A stretch of DNA of 64,000 nucleotides from Minisyncoccota bacterium (lineage in GTDB: Bacteria > Patescibacteriota > Minisyncoccia > Phycocordibacterales > UBA2100): NCBI GenBank assembly GCA_022842645.1, contig JALHPE010000002.1:149047-213046 (forward strand), given 5' to 3'. The stretch's first letter is position 1; each line of letters begins with the position of its first letter. This document shows, piece after piece, positions 8,093 to 53,208 of this stretch. Below the pieces are notes generated by a model that was given only the letters and a program-made list of their open reading frames with translations, made no database searches and was not told the DNA's origin. The translations under genes were made by a program, and so were the position numbers.

Positions 8093-8413
8093 ATGTATTC
8101 ATTCCCAGAACTAATCAAAAAAATACGAGAAGCGGCCGGCATGACGCAGGCCGATTTTGCGCGGGCGCTCGGCGTATCCGCCGTGCTAATTGCAATGGTG
8201 GAAACTGGGCAAAAAGAGGTTTCTAAAAATTTGCTTCGCAAAATTGCCGAGCAGTTAGATGTGCATCCGTCCTCCATAACACCTTTCCTGTTCGCGGATG
8301 AGAAAAAAGATACCCTGTCGCCAGTCGAGAAAAAGTTTATTCAGTGGGGCGAGCAACTACAGGAGCATTTGATAAAAGACCGTGCAAAACTTCTCAAAAA
8401 CCATGCGGCGTAG
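8093..8413 (+). CDS. XRE-family helix-turn-helix protein (Cro/C1-type)
   Basis: HTH_3-like GMTQADFARALGVSAVLIAMVETGQKEVSKNLLRKIAEQLDV; its stop overlaps the RT start (ccATGcggcgTAG). Confidence 0.7.
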   Translation: MYSFPELIKKIREAAGMTQADFARALGVSAVLIAMVETGQKEVSKNLLRKIAEQLDVHPSSITPFLFADEKKDTLSPVEKKFIQWGEQLQEHLIKDRAKLLKNHAA

Positions 8414-9401
8414 GCGATACCCAAAAATCCATATACAGAGCAAGAACGAGCTGGCAAAGCATATAGACAGCGCACGTCTCCCATATGAGAAAGCCCTGTC
8501 GCTCATAAACGATGTGCAAACTAACTTTGATACTTACTGGAAAGACCACCCTACGCAGTCCAAACCAGATAAACGTAAATGGGTACGAAATGCCGCAGGC
8601 ACACCTCTCGCACGGCTTCTTGATTTGATAAACGCAAAAGTTCTCACCCCCGCCGATCTGCTATTGCCAAGTTTCATCTTTGGCGGGATTGGCGGTTTGA
8701 ACCATAAAGCTGCCGTATTACATCTGCTCGGCAATAAGCGAAAACGGATTTTACTCAAACTAGATATAACGAGGTTTTTTGAGCAGATACGCCACGAGCG
8801 GGTCTATCACTTTTTCCGCGATAAGTGCAAATGCAGTGATAAGGGCGCAAAGATACTTGCTGACCTTTGCTGTGTCCGCCACGGCCCGAAGGAAAAACCG
8901 GACGCATATAAAACGATTGCTCGCGGCTTCGCCACTTCGTCGCGCCTTGCTGTCTGGTGCAATGTAGACACCTTCCTGCGCCTTGAGCGGCTTGTGCAAA
9001 AAGAATTGCGAGGCAAAGACCCCCGCATCGCCGTTTATGTAGACGACATCGGCATTACCGCAAGTAGGGCGTCGAAGGAGGATATGTTGCGGCTATATGT
9101 AAAAATAAAAACACTTTTGGAACAGGACAAGAATCAACCACTACCTCTAAACGACGACAAGACAAAAGTGATCTTCCATAGTGGCGAAACTTATGACAAA
9201 GACGGAAATTATCTTGGTAAATGGGCGTTTGAACATTTGGGCTTGCAGATGAATCGCAACTCCGTAACTATCGGTTCAAAAACGAGGGGAAAACTGGATA
9301 GAGCAACAAGCGAATTAGAAAAAAGTGATAAGAAAGACCAAACAACCAAACGACGCAGAGGAGCGTTCTTGAATTACAAACGGTATATCGAGGCAGAATA
9401 A
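8403..9401 (+). CDS. reverse transcriptase, retron-type-like
   Basis: RT motifs LLKLDITRFF (motif A Asp), RGFATSSRLA (retron QGxxxSPxLA-like), YVDDIG (YxDD), SVTIG (retron VTG-like). About 333 aa, the size of retron RTs. Overlaps the HTH gene by 11 nt. Confidence 0.75.
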   Translation: MRRRRYPKIHIQSKNELAKHIDSARLPYEKALSLINDVQTNFDTYWKDHPTQSKPDKRKWVRNAAGTPLARLLDLINAKVLTPADLLLPSFIFGGIGGLNHKAAVLHLLGNKRKRILLKLDITRFFEQIRHERVYHFFRDKCKCSDKGAKILADLCCVRHGPKEKPDAYKTIARGFATSSRLAVWCNVDTFLRLERLVQKELRGKDPRIAVYVDDIGITASRASKEDMLRLYVKIKTLLEQDKNQPLPLNDDKTKVIFHSGETYDKDGNYLGKWAFEHLGLQMNRNSVTIGSKTRGKLDRATSELEKSDKKDQTTKRRRGAFLNYKRYIEAE

Positions 9402-10018: not shown

Positions 10019-10019
10019 G

Positions 10020-10091
10020 TGACTCTAGCGGGAATCGAACCCGCCTTCCATCCTTGAGAAGGATGTGTCCTAGCCGATAGACGATAGAGCC
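10020..10091 (-). tRNA. tRNA-Glu (anticodon CTC)
   Basis: Cloverleaf folds by hand: acceptor GGCTCTA/TAGAGTC, D-stem GTCT/GGAC, anticodon stem CATCC/GGATG with loop TTCTCAA, T-arm GCGGG-TTCGATT-CCCGC. Confidence 0.8.
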
Positions 10092-15226: not shown

Positions 15227-15661
15227 TCATAAAGCGCCCACTTCCCCCAGTTTCTCGGCCAAGGCATCTGCTTTCTTTTCGATTGCCGCCTTGTACTCGT
15301 TCCAGCGCTTTGCGTCCCACACCTCGACCCGGTCCGAGACTCCTGCAAAGATCAGAGTTTTTGAAAGACCCGCAAATGCTCTCTGATGTTCTGGAATAAG
15401 AACGCGTCCTGCAGAATCCACTTCAACTTCCGCTGCTCCTGAAAGGATGAAGCGATTGAAGCCGCGTGTGTCTGCCTGTGCGAAAGAAAGTTCTTGCAAT
15501 TTTGCTGCCACTTTCTCCCAGCTCGAACGTGAATAGACGAACAAACAATTATCCAAGCCTCGCGTCATGACCACCTTCCTCCCGAGACCCGTACGGAATT
15601 GCCTCGGGAGAGAGACGCGGCTTTTTTCATCAAGAGTATGTTCGTATTCTCCGATAAACAT
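15227..15661 (-). CDS. mraZ: transcriptional regulator MraZ
   Basis: MFIGEYEHTLDEKSRVSLP... with a duplicated MraZ domain; first gene of the dcw cluster. Confidence 0.85.
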   Translation of the reverse strand: MFIGEYEHTLDEKSRVSLPRQFRTGLGRKVVMTRGLDNCLFVYSRSSWEKVAAKLQELSFAQADTRGFNRFILSGAAEVEVDSAGRVLIPEHQRAFAGLSKTLIFAGVSDRVEVWDAKRWNEYKAAIEKKADALAEKLGEVGAL

Positions 15662-15893
15662 GGCTAAATTTTTTGGGAGGATGGAACGTGCGCGCAACCG
15701 CATTTCCCACTTTCTCCCACTAGATTAGAGTATATTCCACTATATCCCACGCTGCCTCACTTATCCACAAAAAATACCATTCAAAAGCGTCATGAAATAA
15801 TAAGAGGCGCCCGTCAAATGCATTACAACGACGAACGTTTAGGATTACTGCAGGAGCTCCGCACTGGGCGGAGTGACTGGTGAAGGAGGCACT

Positions 15894-16781: not shown

Positions 16782-17312
16782 CTATATAACTTCTAAAGCC
16801 GGTGCCTCAGGAGACGACTCTTCAGTCGATGTCGGACTCTCTACTGGCGTCGATTCTTCAACTGATACGGGTTCAATTGGTTCCACTTCTTCCTGTGTCT
16901 CACTCGTCACATCAATGTCCTCGCTGGAAAGAGTATCTTGTGTCAGTTCTTGAGAGGCACCTTCTTCCGTCTGTTCAACGGACACAACCGCTTCGGACAC
17001 AGCACCACCAGAACCATCTCCACCACCCCCGCTCGAGGTTGGGTCTTCTGGGATCTCGGACCCTGCCTGATGTGGTGCCTCTTCTTCTTCGATAATCAAA
17101 TCTTCTGTCGTTGTACCGAGAACTGCAGCAAACATCATTTGCTCCGGAAGAACTGGCGGCGACCATTCACCTGCACGAAATACATTGCCAATGGAGCGTT
17201 CGATGTCACTAAAGTAGGAAATGGTTCCCCCTGCACCCCCTGCCATCATAGAAGACATGAAAACGAGTCCTAACACGAGCGCGGTTGATGTGCCGTAGGT
17301 GTCTTTATGCAT
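16782..17312 (-). CDS. possible nested or fused SipW-substrate protein (internal start MHKDTYGTSTALVLGLVF...)
   Basis: In-frame Met at 17310-17312, followed by a hydrophobic stretch and the AGGAGGT-ISYFSDIERSIGNVFRAG motif, then a low-complexity acidic tail; same frame as sipW with no intervening stop. Confidence 0.3.
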   Translation of the reverse strand: MHKDTYGTSTALVLGLVFMSSMMAGGAGGTISYFSDIERSIGNVFRAGEWSPPVLPEQMMFAAVLGTTTEDLIIEEEEAPHQAGSEIPEDPTSSGGGGDGSGGAVSEAVVSVEQTEEGASQELTQDTLSSEDIDVTSETQEEVEPIEPVSVEESTPVESPTSTEESSPEAPALEVI

Positions 17313-18008
17313 ACGAAATTGTGTGTGCCACCACTCCGCGTGCATGAACTGCGGCTTCATATACATTGGAATGAAAATCTCGTCCATCGCGCGTTCGCGT
17401 CCATAAAAGAGACGTAGAGGCGCACCCTCTTCATCCACTGAGCCTGCACCGCCTTTGGGCGTATCATCCTCGCCACGGCGTCTGCGCAGTGCCGCACGCG
17501 CTTCTTTTGCAATCGTGATTATCTCTTCAAGAATAATGAGTCCTGCTGGAAGTCCGATGAGAAGAGCAAAACCAAGCGGCTGGCGTGCAAAATCAAGCAC
17601 AAAGCCCGCGCCCGGCACATGTACCAATACTTTTCCTATCACTTCCCGCAGGGCCACAGAGTCTTGATCGATCTCCTCGTTCGCATCCCCCTTCGTGATG
17701 AAGATTCGTTCAGAGCCAGTGCCTTCCACAGCGACAATGCGGTGGGTGGTGGGAATCTCACTTGCGGTGTCGGGGCCAAAGGTGATTACGTCGCCAACGC
17801 TGTAAGAGAACGACGAGGAAGGCTTCACGATCACCAGTGAGCCCGTCGGAATCGCGGGCTCCATCGAACCCGATTTCACAATCTTAATCTCAATGTTCCC
17901 CGGAATCGGGAGCATCGAACCCACCAGAAGCCCCGCGACACCAAGGAGAGCCGCGATGAAAATAGTGGTGAAAAGTATGTTAATGAATTTGATCATATTA
18001 TCTTCCAA
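16782..18008 (-). CDS. sipW: signal peptidase I, archaeal/SipW type (S26B), with a ~240-aa in-frame C-terminal extension
   Basis: N-terminal TM, catalytic motifs KSGSMEP, THRIV and ITKGDAN, then a second TM. The extension contains ...ALVLGLVFMSSMMAGGAGGTISYFSDIERSIGNVFRAGEW (a SipW-cognate class signal motif) and an acidic S/T/E/P-rich tail. Confidence 0.8.
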   Translation of the reverse strand: MEDNMIKFINILFTTIFIAALLGVAGLLVGSMLPIPGNIEIKIVKSGSMEPAIPTGSLVIVKPSSSFSYSVGDVITFGPDTASEIPTTHRIVAVEGTGSERIFITKGDANEEIDQDSVALREVIGKVLVHVPGAGFVLDFARQPLGFALLIGLPAGLIILEEIITIAKEARAALRRRRGEDDTPKGGAGSVDEEGAPLRLFYGRERAMDEIFIPMYMKPQFMHAEWWHTQFRMHKDTYGTSTALVLGLVFMSSMMAGGAGGTISYFSDIERSIGNVFRAGEWSPPVLPEQMMFAAVLGTTTEDLIIEEEEAPHQAGSEIPEDPTSSGGGGDGSGGAVSEAVVSVEQTEEGASQELTQDTLSSEDIDVTSETQEEVEPIEPVSVEESTPVESPTSTEESSPEAPALEVI

Positions 18009-20402: not shown

Positions 20403-20485
20403 GTCACGGATATTTCTTTGGTAAGAAATTCCGCAACCCCGCCTCAGCATCGACATGCTTCCGGCCTTGCGATGGGGCCCCGTCC
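20403..20485. promoter_or_regulatory. about 85-bp module, copy 1, with palindromic operator-like site GGATATTTCTTTGGTAAGAAATTCC (20408-20432) 25 nt upstream of the paralog B start
   Basis: Imperfect palindrome; the module is about 75% identical to 20585-20665. Confidence 0.5.
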
Positions 20486-20584
20486 CCATCTCACCCCCGA
20501 ATTTTTAATGTGGCGCTGAATCTTGTTCAGCTTGCCGAGCACCTCGTGAGATGCTCGACCTAGCTATCCAAGACCTTGCGGTGC

Positions 20585-20665
20585 GTCACGGATATTTCTT
20601 TGCTAAGAAATTCCGCGACCCCGCCTCGGAGCCAAGCTCCTCCGGCCTTGCGACGAGCCCCCGGC
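20585..20665. promoter_or_regulatory. about 85-bp module, copy 2, with palindrome GGATATTTCTTTGCTAAGAAATTCC (20590-20614)
   Basis: Direct duplicate of 20403-20485, 182 bp away. Confidence 0.5.
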
Positions 20666-20816
20666 TCGTCGCACCCGCCTGCCGGATTTTCAGCTCTTTG
20701 GAGCTGAAAATCCGGCGAAAGTACGGCTATACCCGAGCCTCATTCGTGCAATTTCGGGCGAAATTGCACGCAAGCTCGTTTTGACCCTATCTCCTCACAA
20801 CGCGCGTTGTGAGGAG
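20651..20816 (-). terminator. cluster of four consecutive perfect hairpins immediately downstream of the paralog C stop
   Basis: Perfect 26-nt palindrome CTCCTCACAACGCGCGTTGTGAGGAG (20791-20816); CGTGCAATTTCG/CGAAATTGCACG (20745-20770); CCGGATTTTCAGCTC-TTTG-GAGCTGAAAATCCGG (20682-20715); CGACGAGCC-CCC-GGCTCGTCG (20651-20671). Confidence 0.45.
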
Positions 20817-20840
20817 ATCCTGGGTCAGGCTAGAGAACTA

Positions 20841-21773
20841 CTAGCTCTGAGGATTGCAAGAGAAGTTCGGATTGTTTCGAGACTGCTCTACGTAGAATGT
20901 CAGGTCGGCATTCCATGAATCGGTTTGTGCTTCGTTGCCCATAGTCGCACCGTTACAAACGATTGGATTACCTGGAGTTGGAGTTCCAATATCGCCCGCA
21001 CACCATGCGAGACCAATGTAACTGGTTGAACCGCCCTCAATTGGGGTATCGCCACCCTCTGCAAGTGCCCACGTTGTGGCTGCGAGCGAGCTCGCAGAAA
21101 CGGGCCCACCAAGTGCTGTTTCGCCAAGTTCAAAGACGTTATCGCCGTCGTCTGTCCATGCGAAGAACTCAAGATTGGTGTCGAGATCTCCATTGTTAGG
21201 GGTTGCATCTTCCCCTACAAGACCTCCAGATTCATCTTCTGGCTCGGTAATGCTGTTATCAGCATCGCCAATGTTTGCAATCGATGCACACATCCATGCA
21301 TCATTGCTGCCGACGTGAATCGAGATGGTGTTTTCACCATTGTCGCCCGGCTTGATGTCATTGAAGTTAAAGAATTCATCCATGCCAAGTGTGTTTTCGC
21401 TCAGGTTACCCACTGGCCATGTGCCCGTACATGCCGAGCCTGCTGTTGGGAACTGCGCAGGATTTGCAAGATTGTATGCATCCCATTCAGTTTGCTCATT
21501 CATGTTTCCAGCTGCTACAGGAGAAGACGAAGCGTTCAGTGTCACACTCGTCTCTGGAATGTAGTGGTAGGTGGCACCAACGAGTGTGCAGACCATGCCG
21601 TTGTAATGAGCGACGCTATCGATCTGAAGATCAATATCGCCCGCTGTAAACGTATTTCCCGTCGACGTTTCCGTGTCGGAGAAGAATGCGCCCGTCGAGC
21701 TTACGACGACCGCGCCCACAAACACAATCATCGCAAGAGATGCGAGGATGCGTGTATTAAGAAGTGCTGTCAT
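20841..21773 (-). CDS. TasA/camelysin-like secreted protein, paralog C
   Basis: TM plus AFFSDTETSTGNTFTAGDIDLQIDS; FNDIKPGDNGENTISIHVGSNDAWMC; C-terminal WCAGD...IVCNGATMGNEAQTDS...C. Confidence 0.7.
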   Translation of the reverse strand: MTALLNTRILASLAMIVFVGAVVVSSTGAFFSDTETSTGNTFTAGDIDLQIDSVAHYNGMVCTLVGATYHYIPETSVTLNASSSPVAAGNMNEQTEWDAYNLANPAQFPTAGSACTGTWPVGNLSENTLGMDEFFNFNDIKPGDNGENTISIHVGSNDAWMCASIANIGDADNSITEPEDESGGLVGEDATPNNGDLDTNLEFFAWTDDGDNVFELGETALGGPVSASSLAATTWALAEGGDTPIEGGSTSYIGLAWCAGDIGTPTPGNPIVCNGATMGNEAQTDSWNADLTFYVEQSRNNPNFSCNPQS

Positions 21774-21892
21774 ATATTTGTAATTTCTATTACCTACTTT
21801 TCTAATAACTACTATCTAATTTCTATTTTTTAATGTGACTCCTTGTCGGGATCGACCGTCCGACTCCGCCAGCCGGCGGACGCTCACGACAA

Positions 21893-21942
21893 AGAGCCGC
21901 GTTTTTTTTATTGAATCAGAAAACAAACGCGGCTCGTCGCGA
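21893..21942. other. long hairpin CGAGCCGCGTTT...AAACGCGGCTCG (12-bp perfect stem) upstream of paralog C
   Basis: Read directly from the sequence. Confidence 0.4.
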
Positions 21943-21985
21943 TGAGCTTAGCTTGTAAACAAGTGATGGTGAGATACACCATGCG

Positions 21986-22169
21986 GGTGAACATGCCTTC
22001 ACGTTCCCCGCCGTGAGACACTTATAGAGTAATAGCACGCGTGAACACCTGTCAATTTTTTACACAACGTTTATTTCGGTGGAAAACTATGTGGACAACC
22101 TGTCAAAGGAGTGTGGATAGTCTAGGGGCGAAAAAAGTGTACAACGTGTGAACAAACCTGTGGAAAAGC
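21986..22169. promoter_or_regulatory. array of direct repeats GTG(A/G)ACA(A/C)(A)CCTGT(C/G)(A/G)A with about 50-bp periodicity
   Basis: GGGTGAACATGCC (21986-21998), GTGAACACCTGTCAA (22041-22055), GTGGACAACCTGTCAA (22091-22106), GTGTACAACGTG plus GTGAACAAACCTGTGGAA (22137-22165). Confidence 0.45.
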
Positions 22170-22285
22170 TCTTTATTATGATATTGACATAAGGTAAAAC
22201 ACCACGGGCTACTTGCGCACTTTTCTAAGAGGTATGCCGTGAAGGCAGTGCCTACATTCCGTGGGACACAGCAAAGGAGAGTGTC

Positions 22286-22372
22286 ATGGAAGTATTGGGA
22301 ATGGAATGGTATTTGTGGCTCGCCCTGGCGATTATAGTGTGGTTCATCTACCACGTCGTCAAACCTGGGTGA
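22286..22372 (+). CDS. 28-aa hydrophobic micro-protein MEVLGMEWYLWLALAIIVWFIYHVVKPG
   Basis: SD AAAGGAGA 7 nt upstream of the ATG; single predicted TM; followed by hairpin GCCGCCTCGAG-AGCTTGC-CTCGAGGCGG. Confidence 0.4.
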   Translation: MEVLGMEWYLWLALAIIVWFIYHVVKPG

Positions 22373-22505
22373 TGTCGCGCCGCCTCGAGAGCTTGCCTCG
22401 AGGCGGTTCTGCATTGAGCACATCATGCTCGACAAGAAAAAGGTACGGGTGTAGGGTTACTCACTGGCATGCGCGCATACCTGTAGCAAAGGGAGAAGAA
22501 AGACA

Positions 22506-22703
22506 ATGCCTCAGGAAAAGCAAAAGGAAACGGACCTATCGGGGCTTCCCCCGATACCGAATCAAAACGCGGGTGAAGAAATGGGAGAGGCAAGAATTGT
22601 TCCCACTCCTCGAAGAGTGGTTGATCTTTCGGGGTTCCCGGAAGACTGCGGGGGTCATAGCATCGGAAGCAAACCGCGCTTTACTCCTCCAAGCGAACAT
22701 TAG
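22506..22703 (+). CDS. hypothetical small protein (65 aa)
   Basis: SD-like GGGAGAAG upstream; terminator hairpin downstream (22741-22771). Confidence 0.3.
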   Translation: MPQEKQKETDLSGLPPIPNQNAGEEMGEARIVPTPRRVVDLSGFPEDCGGHSIGSKPRFTPPSEH

Positions 22704-51396: not shown

Positions 51397-52641
51397 TCAT
51401 GCAGCTTTTTCCCCACTCCTCCACACGACCGGCATCGAGACGAAAAATGTGGTTCCTTTTCCTTCTTCAGATTCAAAGGTGATACTGCCCCCCGCACGCG
51501 CGAGTACAATTTTGATCACATAGAGCCCGAGCCCCGTGCCATCCGGCACGAGTTTCTGCGCATTGCTTGCGCGGTAGAGGCGCTCAAACACCTTTTCGCG
51601 CTCACTTGCAGGAATGCCAATGCCACTGTCTTTAACCGTGAGGTAGATGGTGTCATTCGGTACGCTGACAAGGGAAAGTGTGTAGTCGACTGTTCCGCCT
51701 TCACGCGAATATTTAATAGCGTTGGAGAGCAGGTTCTGCAACATCATGCGCACAAGCTTCTCATCGGCGTGCATCGTGGGAAACGAAGAATCAGACACGA
51801 GATTCACCGTCACTTTTCTTTGTGCTGCCGCATGCTCCTGCTCGCGAAACACGTCGCGAACCAGAGTATCAATATTAAAATCCGAAAGCGTCATCGCAAG
51901 CGTACCGAGCTCGATGCGCGACATATTCAAAAGGTCGTTCACCATTTCCACCATCTGCTGCGCAGAACTTTTGATGTTTTTGATATATTCTTCCTGTTTT
52001 TTTGTGAGCGGTTCCGCACCCTCTGCGACAAGTATTTCTGAGAGCCATTTAATGGAGGTGAGTGGCGTCTTAAGCTGATGCGAGGCAAGTGAAACGAATT
52101 CTGACTTTGCGCGATCCACCTCCATCTCTTTCGTCACATCGTGGGCAACGCCACGCACTGAGCGCGTGATGCGATTCACGACCGCCGACTTTCCTTCAAT
52201 ATTGAGATTGCGGACTTCGCCACGATTCGAAACAGTACGCACCGTAAAACTAAAGACTCCTGGCTGCGTCGTCGCTCTCTGCCATGCGCCTTTAAAGCGC
52301 TCACGATCACCCTCGTGAATATACGGCTCAAGAGAGTCGATTGTCGGGATGTTTCTTCGTGGCACAAGCCCGAAAAGCGCATACATCTCATCCGACCAGT
52401 ACGAGCGCGTTGGATCTTCAAAATCCCAAAGAAAGCTCCCCACCTTTCCAATTACCTCAGCTTCATGCAAACGCTCTTCAGCTCGCTTCCGAGCATCCAC
52501 CAGAAGATCCATACCCTTCCCTGCACGCGCGCGCGCAGTAATGGCGAGATAGATAGCAACCACCGCAATACTCACGAGCAACACCCCCACAAACATAATG
52601 AGTGATGAACTCCAGAACGTAGGGTTTGCAAGAATATCCAT
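51397..52641 (-). CDS. sensor histidine kinase (TM + PAS + HisKA + HATPase_c)
   Basis: H-box LASHQLKTPLTSI; N, G1, G2 boxes (NLLSNAIKYS, DSGIGI, GTGLGL). Confidence 0.85.
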   Translation of the reverse strand: MDILANPTFWSSSLIMFVGVLLVSIAVVAIYLAITARARAGKGMDLLVDARKRAEERLHEAEVIGKVGSFLWDFEDPTRSYWSDEMYALFGLVPRRNIPTIDSLEPYIHEGDRERFKGAWQRATTQPGVFSFTVRTVSNRGEVRNLNIEGKSAVVNRITRSVRGVAHDVTKEMEVDRAKSEFVSLASHQLKTPLTSIKWLSEILVAEGAEPLTKKQEEYIKNIKSSAQQMVEMVNDLLNMSRIELGTLAMTLSDFNIDTLVRDVFREQEHAAAQRKVTVNLVSDSSFPTMHADEKLVRMMLQNLLSNAIKYSREGGTVDYTLSLVSVPNDTIYLTVKDSGIGIPASEREKVFERLYRASNAQKLVPDGTGLGLYVIKIVLARAGGSITFESEEGKGTTFFVSMPVVWRSGEKAA

Positions 52642-52743
52642 ATCTGTATTGTATCAACAGGAATGAGGCTTGCCTTCTCTTCGCATCTCTACTACAGTCG
52701 CGGCAGGCCTATGATGTTTCGTAGGCAGACAAGGGAGCTCACG

Positions 52744-53208
52744 ATGACATGGACTGATGAACGAGTAGCGCGTTTAAAAAAGCTTTGGGCAGATGGCTGT
52801 TCTGCTTTGCAGATCGCCTCAGACCTAGGAGGGGTGACACGGCATGCGGTCATTGGCAAAGTGCATAGACTCGGCCTCTCAGGACGAGCTGTGGTATCTC
52901 GAATGAAACCGGGTAGGGCGGCTCAGCAAAAGAGGCCTCAACCCCGGCAAGTCGAACCTCCCTCAGTGCCTCAAAAGGCACCAAGTAAGTCCGCTGAGTT
53001 TGAAGAACTGGTGATACCCATATCTAACAGAAAGACATTGGACACCATTGAAGAACACCACTGCCACTGGCCTATAGGCGATCCGGGTTCGCGTGATTTC
53101 CACTTCTGTGGAAAAACGAAGATACATGGATCCTACTGTGAATTTCATGCACGGAGGGCATTTCAACCTGGCTCAGCGCGCCCTATACGGAACCGAGAGC
53201 TTGCATAG
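52744..53208 (+). CDS. gcrA: GcrA-family cell-cycle regulator-like protein
   Basis: MTWTDERVARLKKLWADGCSALQIASDLGGVTRHAVIGKVHRLGLSGRA plus C-terminal CHWPIGDP...FCG...YC module. Confidence 0.7.
   Translation: MTWTDERVARLKKLWADGCSALQIASDLGGVTRHAVIGKVHRLGLSGRAVVSRMKPGRAAQQKRPQPRQVEPPSVPQKAPSKSAEFEELVIPISNRKTLDTIEEHHCHWPIGDPGSRDFHFCGKTKIHGSYCEFHARRAFQPGSARPIRNRELA

Follow-up and report, generated by a model that had tools for sequence, protein, structure and literature searches.

The stretch of DNA analyzed here (64,000 nucleotides, termed the window) is similar to Candidatus Saccharibacteria (TM7) genomes and carries a row of minus-strand genes headed by a TasA/camelysin-like gene, which extends to position 16782 and includes paralogs of this gene and an ORF with a weak match to a SipW-like peptidase (Table 1). 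The 310-aa TasA-like protein matched Peptidase_M73 with an E value of 1.7e-4, which is slightly short of the Pfam cut-off, and its homologs carry the labels "TasA family protein" or "SipW-like signal peptide" in some source records. TasA homologs are known in Patescibacteria (bioRxiv 10.1101/2022.04.22.489182). The neighboring genes of the window are chromosomal housekeeping genes, namely ddl, uvrABC, murB, and mraZ-mraW-ftsI. A gap of 433 nt (20408-20840) separates the first and second TasA-like genes, of which the portion 20679-20770 is 84% identical to the closest relative, L001. This gap could contain a terminator or an internal promoter, and no DnaA-box cluster was found within it. Ahead of the first TasA-like gene lies an intergenic region of 730 bp (21774-22505), which holds the array described below together with a micro-ORF. 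A perfect 10-bp hairpin was observed 3' of the micro-ORF (22380-22406, plus strand), and a 65-codon ORF (22506-22703, plus strand) lies beyond both; neither the micro-ORF nor the 65-codon ORF is kept in L001. More distant parts of the window contain a reverse-transcriptase ORF (8382-9401, plus strand; RVT_1, E = 1.5e-9) near a tRNA-Glu (10019-10091), which could be part of a diversity-generating retroelement, a retron, or a group II intron. They also contain a histidine kinase of PAS-HisKA-HATPase composition (51400-52641, minus strand), which adjoins a homolog of the GcrA family of cell-cycle regulators (52663-53208, plus strand; PF07750, E = 8.8e-46).

Table 1. Coordinates of the features at the TasA-like locus of the window. 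Boxes are numbered from the predicted promoter outward, and sequences of the 9-mers are those of the minus strand.
Feature	Position	Strand	Remarks
SipW-like peptidase ORF	16782-18008	-	408 aa; weak Peptidase_S26 match
TasA/camelysin-like gene	20841-21773, ATG 21773	-	310-aa secreted protein; first gene of the putatively regulated operon
Predicted 5' leader of the TasA-like mRNA	21774-22021	-	~245 nt; starts near GTGTC 22021-22017
Leader core	21839-21949	-	Long hairpin 21882-21947, invariant CTCTTTGTCGTGAGCG, SD-like AAGGAG 21844-21839
Copy 1 of the preliminary description	21987-22003	+	Not a binding-site copy; small leader hairpin, sense GTGAA-GGCATG-TTCAC
Predicted -10	22026-22034	-	TACTCT (22031-22026, 18-bp spacer) or TATTAC (22034-22029)
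Predicted -35, TTGACA	22055-22050	-	Sigma-70-type, TasA-like operon; 22 bp downstream of box I
Box I, TTTTCCACC	22078-22086	-	12 bp from box II, 22 bp upstream of -35; identical in L001
Box II, TTGTCCACA	22090-22098	-	Identical in L001; also in the arrays of L021 and L022
Degenerate in-phase 9-mer, CCTTTGACA	22101-22109	-	11 bp from boxes III and II; contains CCTGTCAA of the preliminary description; GTTTTGACA in L001 and L005, GCATTGACA in L003
Box III, CTATCCACA	22112-22120	-	ATGTCCACA in L001 and L005
Box IV, TTGTACACT	22136-22144	-	Weak box; GTGTCCACA in L001, TTGTGCACA in L005
Box V, TTGTTCACA	22147-22155	-	Homologous site TTATCCACG in L001, ATGTTCACA in L005
Box VI, TTTTCCACA	22159-22167	-	1 mismatch to TTATCCACA, at variable position 3; TTCTCCACA in L005, not kept in L001 and L003
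Micro-ORF	22286-22372	+	28 codons, hydrophobic; strong AAGGAG ribosome-binding site

A preliminary description of this region had pointed to four to five copies of a ~15-nt direct repeat with a period of ~50 bp. When both strands of the 64-kb window were scanned for its composite form, GTGRACA-N0-2-CCTGT, three matches were obtained at 22041, 22091, and 22148, all on the plus strand, with start-to-start distances of 50 and 57 bp. The same pattern occurred with a mean of 0.038 and a maximum of 1 in 500 dinucleotide-preserving shuffles, which indicates that the composite repeat is real and beyond chance. The shorter core GTGRAHA occurs in 7 copies on one strand within 200 bp (21987-22166), as compared with a density of at most 2 elsewhere in the window and at most 3 in 300 shuffles. 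A general repeat search of the window returned two-copy families only. Three good copies stand, whereas the copy at 21987 (GTGAACATGCCTTCA) lacks CCTGT and a candidate at 22013 is unlike the others. The former constitutes one half of a small hairpin in the predicted leader; its sequence is not kept in L001, L003, and L005, which have a small hairpin at the equal position (e.g., CGTG...CACG). For the copy at 22041, the GTGAACA falls in the promoter spacer, and the following TGTCAA, like CCTGTCAA, is the -35 TTGACA viewed on the opposite strand. The GTGAACA of these two copies was not conserved even in L001. Moreover, the composite is missing in all relatives except for one copy in L005, so that the idea of a conserved ~15-nt unit with a ~50-bp period had to be abandoned. 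Each composite copy is made up of two adjacent 9-mers and a GG spacer (minus strand, xxxxxxACA-GG-TTGTyCAC), and the 50-bp repeat is thus a by-product of paired 9-mers. The proposal of a protein-site array near the TasA-like operon was borne out, and the array is conserved in relatives, although with the 9-mer as its unit and a phasing of 11-12 bp, both of which are kept where the composite is not.

The conserved unit is TT[G/T/A]T[C/T]CACA on the minus strand, i.e., on the strand of the TasA-like gene, which is the DnaA-box consensus. Six or seven such 9-mers are located head-to-tail between 22078 and 22167 in steps of 11-12 bp (2-3-bp gaps) or multiples thereof. They were scored against the DnaA-box consensus TTATCCACA, which may differ from the host's own origin boxes. 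When at most one mismatch to TTATCCACA was allowed, 3 boxes were found within 78 bp on one strand, while 17 matches were found over the 64 kb on both strands. With position 3 set free and at most one mismatch, 5 boxes were found in 120 bp, for which 300 shuffles gave at most 3. Apart from this array upstream of the TasA-like gene, no 120-bp segment of the window contains three or more boxes. Position 3 was G, T, or A about equally in a frequency table of 11 loci, which was built from sites picked for their likeness to the consensus, and owing to this variability fewer boxes qualify when the stricter criterion used for B. subtilis is applied (TTATNCACA, at most one mismatch). Box II is likely to be a high-affinity anchor. 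The sequence adjoining box I is GAAATAAACGTTGTG, which is followed by the promoter.

Relatives of the locus, denoted L001 to L027, were collected by several routes. L001, which comes from an uncultured Saccharibacteria genome, was obtained via Ddl (82% identical) and is independent of the array. L003, L004, and L005 were obtained by a metagenome scan for which boxes I and II served as the probe, and the conservation of both boxes in these three loci is therefore by construction; a fourth metagenome match, L002, was an AT-rich chance match and was dropped. L016 and L019-L027 were obtained via TasA-like proteins that are 51-80% identical to that of the window. Exact-protein matches of the TasA-like protein lie on ~1.2-kb contigs, which end ~130-155 bp upstream of the gene and are short of the array.

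About 10 of the 11 Saccharibacteria lineages collected carry arrays of equal orientation and spacing ahead of their first TasA-like gene. L001, L005, L020, L021, and L027 each contain a single cluster that reaches three boxes per 120 bp, which lies before the first TasA-like gene in sense orientation, while L022 and L023 possess looser arrays and L003 and L004 a pair of boxes. The array carriers L020-L023 and L027 were found via TasA-like proteins of 58-72% identity. Perfect TTATCCACA boxes are present in L027, and TTATCCACG in L001. The box-to-box distances in the 11 loci were 11 bp (ten times), 12 bp (eight times), and 22-24 bp (nine times), which amounts to one site per helical turn. The array sites are non-random, and their position, orientation, and spacing are kept across Saccharibacteria. 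The locus whose TasA-like protein is 80% identical, L016, keeps the leader and has no same-orientation array; in its region 780-960, box-like sites are limited to TGTGGATTT and GTGGTGAAAAA, which both point the opposite way. The upstream neighbor genes vary by lineage, and the array follows directly after the terminator of the preceding gene in L001, L003, L020, L021, and L027. These varying neighbors, together with the absence of the micro-ORF side from L001, indicate that the array is part of the TasA-like transcription unit rather than of the micro-ORF, to which it had also been linked. Outside Saccharibacteria, the region ahead of a TasA-like gene in L024 (Nomurabacteria CP060227.1, ~2750-2850) holds three TTAT[A/G][C/T]AC-like sites in 12-bp phase, plus TTATCCCCA as an inverted pair. 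They may represent a divergent operator of this kind.

A sigma-70-type promoter of the TasA-like operon was predicted immediately downstream of the array. Its -35 is conserved as TTGAC[A/G/C/T] or TTGCA[C/T] in 9 lineages, and the distance from the last box to the -35 was 0-60 bp across the loci. A conserved GTGTC pentamer (22021-22017 on the minus strand; GACAC on the plus strand) lies 28 nt downstream of the -35 in the window, L001, L003, L005, L016, L020, and L021, and 26 nt downstream of it in L022 and L023; it reads ATGTC in L016 and L023 and GGGAC in L020. The pentamer, located at the predicted start site, may be no more than start-site context, and GACAC is also the WhiA-type motif. Transcription is predicted to start near 22020 on the minus strand. 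A promoter scan of L003 and L005, in which the homologous -10 is TATTAT, identified the orthologous site as the only promoter-like site of the region, with 10 of 12 matches. In the window, the minus-strand promoter was missing from the results of the same scan, since its -10 matches only at 3 of 6 positions, so that the promoter call depends on conservation and on the relatives. Such a weak -10 is as expected of an activator-dependent promoter.

The predicted transcript would begin with a structured leader, whose sequence is conserved at least as well as the flanking coding DNA. A consensus fold of six leaders comprised 39 pairs, 12 of which showed compensatory changes, and 88.7% of cells pair. 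The observed values exceeded those of all 500 shuffles, and pairing in slid controls amounted to only 39-52%. The support for this fold comes mostly from the long hairpin. Invariant G-U pairs on the minus strand indicate that the RNA has the same direction as the TasA-like gene. Two alternative partners are possible for the invariant CTCTTTGTCGTGAGCG, namely the 5' side of the hairpin and the downstream SD-like CGACAAGGAG (21844-21839), and the SD-like AAGGAG can pair with the invariant CTCTTTGTCG. These competing pairings hint at a switch. A covariance model of the core (R1) scored 100.9 bits in the window and matched L001, L003, L005, L016, L019, and L021, while no match was obtained in L004, L020, L022-L024, L026, and L027. 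This limited occurrence suggests that the leader is confined to one Saccharibacteria subclade, on which the model was built, plus L019, and the array is conserved more widely. A search of the whole window against Rfam at the gathering threshold gave three tRNAs only, and a permissive search (E up to 10) of 21700-22560 gave chance microRNA-type matches only (E of at least 0.2).

A dense cluster of DnaA boxes with a 60-bp AT-rich stretch close by (21775-21835) might also be taken for a chromosomal oriC, and iterons of the plasmid or phage type had been suggested for the repeat. The GC skew is, however, negative without a sign change, and the cumulative skew declines steadily over 1-64 kb, including 22 kb. 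The flanking genes share the same strand in the window, L020, L021, and L027; neither the window nor the loci contain a dnaA gene, and no DnaN or Rep was found among the scanned ORFs. A six-frame search of the window and all loci likewise found no DnaA domain IV signature. Moreover, the AT-rich stretch is located 240 bp off the boxes in the transcribed 5' UTR and is not conserved, and the covarying RNA helices lie between the boxes and the gene. The skew, the strand bias, and the gene content thus led to the rejection of an origin, and there is neither an unwinding element nor DnaA-trios beside the boxes. Iterons were rejected as well, because the unit is a 9-mer and not an iteron-type repeat of 17-22 bp, no rep gene was found, and the context is of chromosomal housekeeping type, neither plasmid nor phage. 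An origin or iteron function of this region is hardly conceivable.

These observations led us to a reading in which 22078-22167 comprises six or seven DnaA boxes and the array controls the adjacent promoter of the TasA-like fiber operon, to which we assign a probability of roughly 0.6. At least four 9-mers near TTATCCACA are gathered within ~100-150 bp beyond chance, as in a DnaA-box cluster. As is the case for non-oriC DnaA clusters, they are conserved at the orthologous place, with L016 as the exception, and a promoter predicted from the sequence lies beside them. From these features we infer the identity of DnaA as the binder, the promoter with its start site, and the direction of regulation. 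The motif is constant across lineages at 58-80% protein identity, for which a universal factor is the easier explanation. DnaA, probably in its ATP form, would bind the best boxes (II, III, and VI), and would then spread cooperatively across the weaker in-phase boxes toward the promoter. Assembly of DnaA on 22078-22167 could alter the recruitment of RNA polymerase at the promoter (22055-22026), which would transcribe leftwards, through the structured leader, into the TasA-like fiber operon. Transcription of the fiber operon would thereby follow the DnaA and replication status of the cell. We slightly favor activation over repression, since all boxes precede the -35, and since the window combines a poorly matching -10 with a spacer of 18 bp.

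The binder had previously been sought among response regulators and MraZ. OmpR/PhoB-type regulators recognize directly repeated hexamers of the T[C/T]CACA kind at 11-bp phase, and Pho-box-type sites, for example TT(A/T/C)ACA of B. subtilis PhoP, have an 11-bp period. Pho-box-type repeats are arranged head-to-tail, one helical turn apart, and upstream of or overlapping the -35, as in the present array. The same operator architecture could thus be occupied by an OmpR/PhoB-type response regulator, or a lineage-specific factor, acting on T[C/T]CACA direct repeats. The head-to-tail repeats of 11-12 bp suit tandem-dimer winged-helix response regulators, and a histidine kinase is indeed encoded at 51400-52641, as the preliminary description had stated when it placed such regulators ~29 kb away. 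Among the scanned ORFs of the window, none was found to combine a receiver with a DNA-binding domain; those near 50 kb were the kinase, GcrA, and a cyclophilin, with no DNA-binding response regulator. Furthermore, unlike in Pho-box-type repeats, the unit of the TasA array comprises all nine positions of the DnaA box, and this entire 9-mer is conserved, including T1, T2, and T4, with perfect TTATCCACA copies in L027. We consider another binder of this type unlikely, although the spacing would be compatible with it, and the 9-mer agrees with the DnaA box and not with any response-regulator box.

MraZ binds runs of GTGG-type direct repeats, and it is encoded 6 kb away from the array (15230-15703), which might represent a second MraZ operator. 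An operator-like stretch was observed at 15704-15770 on the minus strand, which reads GTGGATAA GTGAGGCAGC GTGGGATATA GTGGAATATA ... GTGGGAGAAA GTGGGAAATG, and MraZ probably starts at the ATG near 15660 (MFIGEYE), not at the ORF start 15703. The E. coli MraZ operator upstream of mraZ is said to consist of TGGGN repeats, a description that reportedly goes back to Eraso et al. 2014. Both the mraZ operator of the window and the TasA array have short GTGG-containing direct repeats ahead of a promoter; the former contains GTGGATAA and GTGGAATA, and the first of its boxes matches TTATCCACA perfectly when the opposite strand is read. Its six GTGG[G/A] boxes, however, follow one another at intervals of exactly 10 bp, and CCAC is followed by T or G, whereas the TasA array proceeds in steps of 11-12 bp, with T before CCAC and A after it. 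Over 5-7 boxes, the two phasings diverge by 5-10 bp. With this strict 10-bp phase, its GTGGG-type boxes, and the other flanking bases of the mraZ operator, a second operator for MraZ at the TasA-like gene is very improbable.

The arrangement proposed for DnaA resembles known ones. In B. subtilis, stable binding of DnaA occurs at non-oriC clusters of four or more DnaA boxes (Ishikawa et al. 2007, PMC2533591), and the influence of DnaA is positive on sda but negative on ywlC and yydA (PMC2533591). The TasA array has in common with these clusters (sda, ywlC, yydA, gcp-ydiF, and others) at least four TTATCCACA-like 9-mers in ~50-100 bp, an intergenic and non-origin location, an adjoining promoter, and conservation among related species. 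It differs from them in that the host is a Saccharibacterium and the putative target a TasA-like secreted-fiber operon. It also differs in its single orientation, in the regular 11-12-bp step, and in having G or T at position 3 as often as A. For E. coli oriC, low-affinity DnaA sites have been described as 9-mers 2 bp apart, which are filled from high-affinity anchors (PMC6070618). Same-orientation 9-mers, here with 2-3-bp spacers, and a mixture of near-consensus and degenerate sites are common to both, an arrangement along which a DnaA oligomer could readily extend from anchor boxes. Unlike E. coli oriC, the present region has no unwinding element, skew flip, or nearby dnaA, and its array abuts a promoter. 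The gidA promoter of P. aeruginosa is described as DnaA-controlled, with DnaA boxes ahead of it in the origin region oriCII (PMC13438810). The two cases share boxes that precede a promoter and DnaA as a transcription factor, proposed as such here, while the TasA array lies outside an origin.

DnaA may also bind here mainly to be titrated or inactivated for the control of initiation, with transcription control being secondary or absent. E. coli datA and the DnaA-box clusters of B. subtilis are examples of such a role. The box density of the TasA array is like that of the stable non-oriC DnaA clusters (PMC2533591), as such a role would have it. On the other side, the array travels with the TasA-like promoter among different neighborhoods, in a fixed orientation and 0-60 bp from the -35. 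Such fixed placement at a moving promoter is expected of promoter control, and not of a position-dependent sink. Titration as the main role is thus improbable; the two roles are compatible and do not exclude each other.

Saccharibacteria are obligate epibionts with very few transcription factors, and we know of almost nothing on gene regulation in these and other candidate-phyla-radiation bacteria. A literature search found no paper connecting DnaA boxes with TasA-like genes in Saccharibacteria. A DnaA-box cluster at a promoter is in itself a well-known kind of element, and the analysis also exposes an unclassified structured leader RNA. It is tentatively proposed, as a combined and rather doubtful picture, that DnaA directly controls the TasA-like fiber operon in Saccharibacteria, to which one subclade adds a second layer of control by an Rfam-unmatched structured leader of ~190 nt with competing pairings around the SD-like AAGGAG. 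A conserved and readily recognized operator before a surface-fiber operon provides a concrete hypothesis for cultivable strains. If DnaA control of this promoter is true, the fibers, which likely serve attachment or form a matrix, would be produced in step with the replication status via DnaA.
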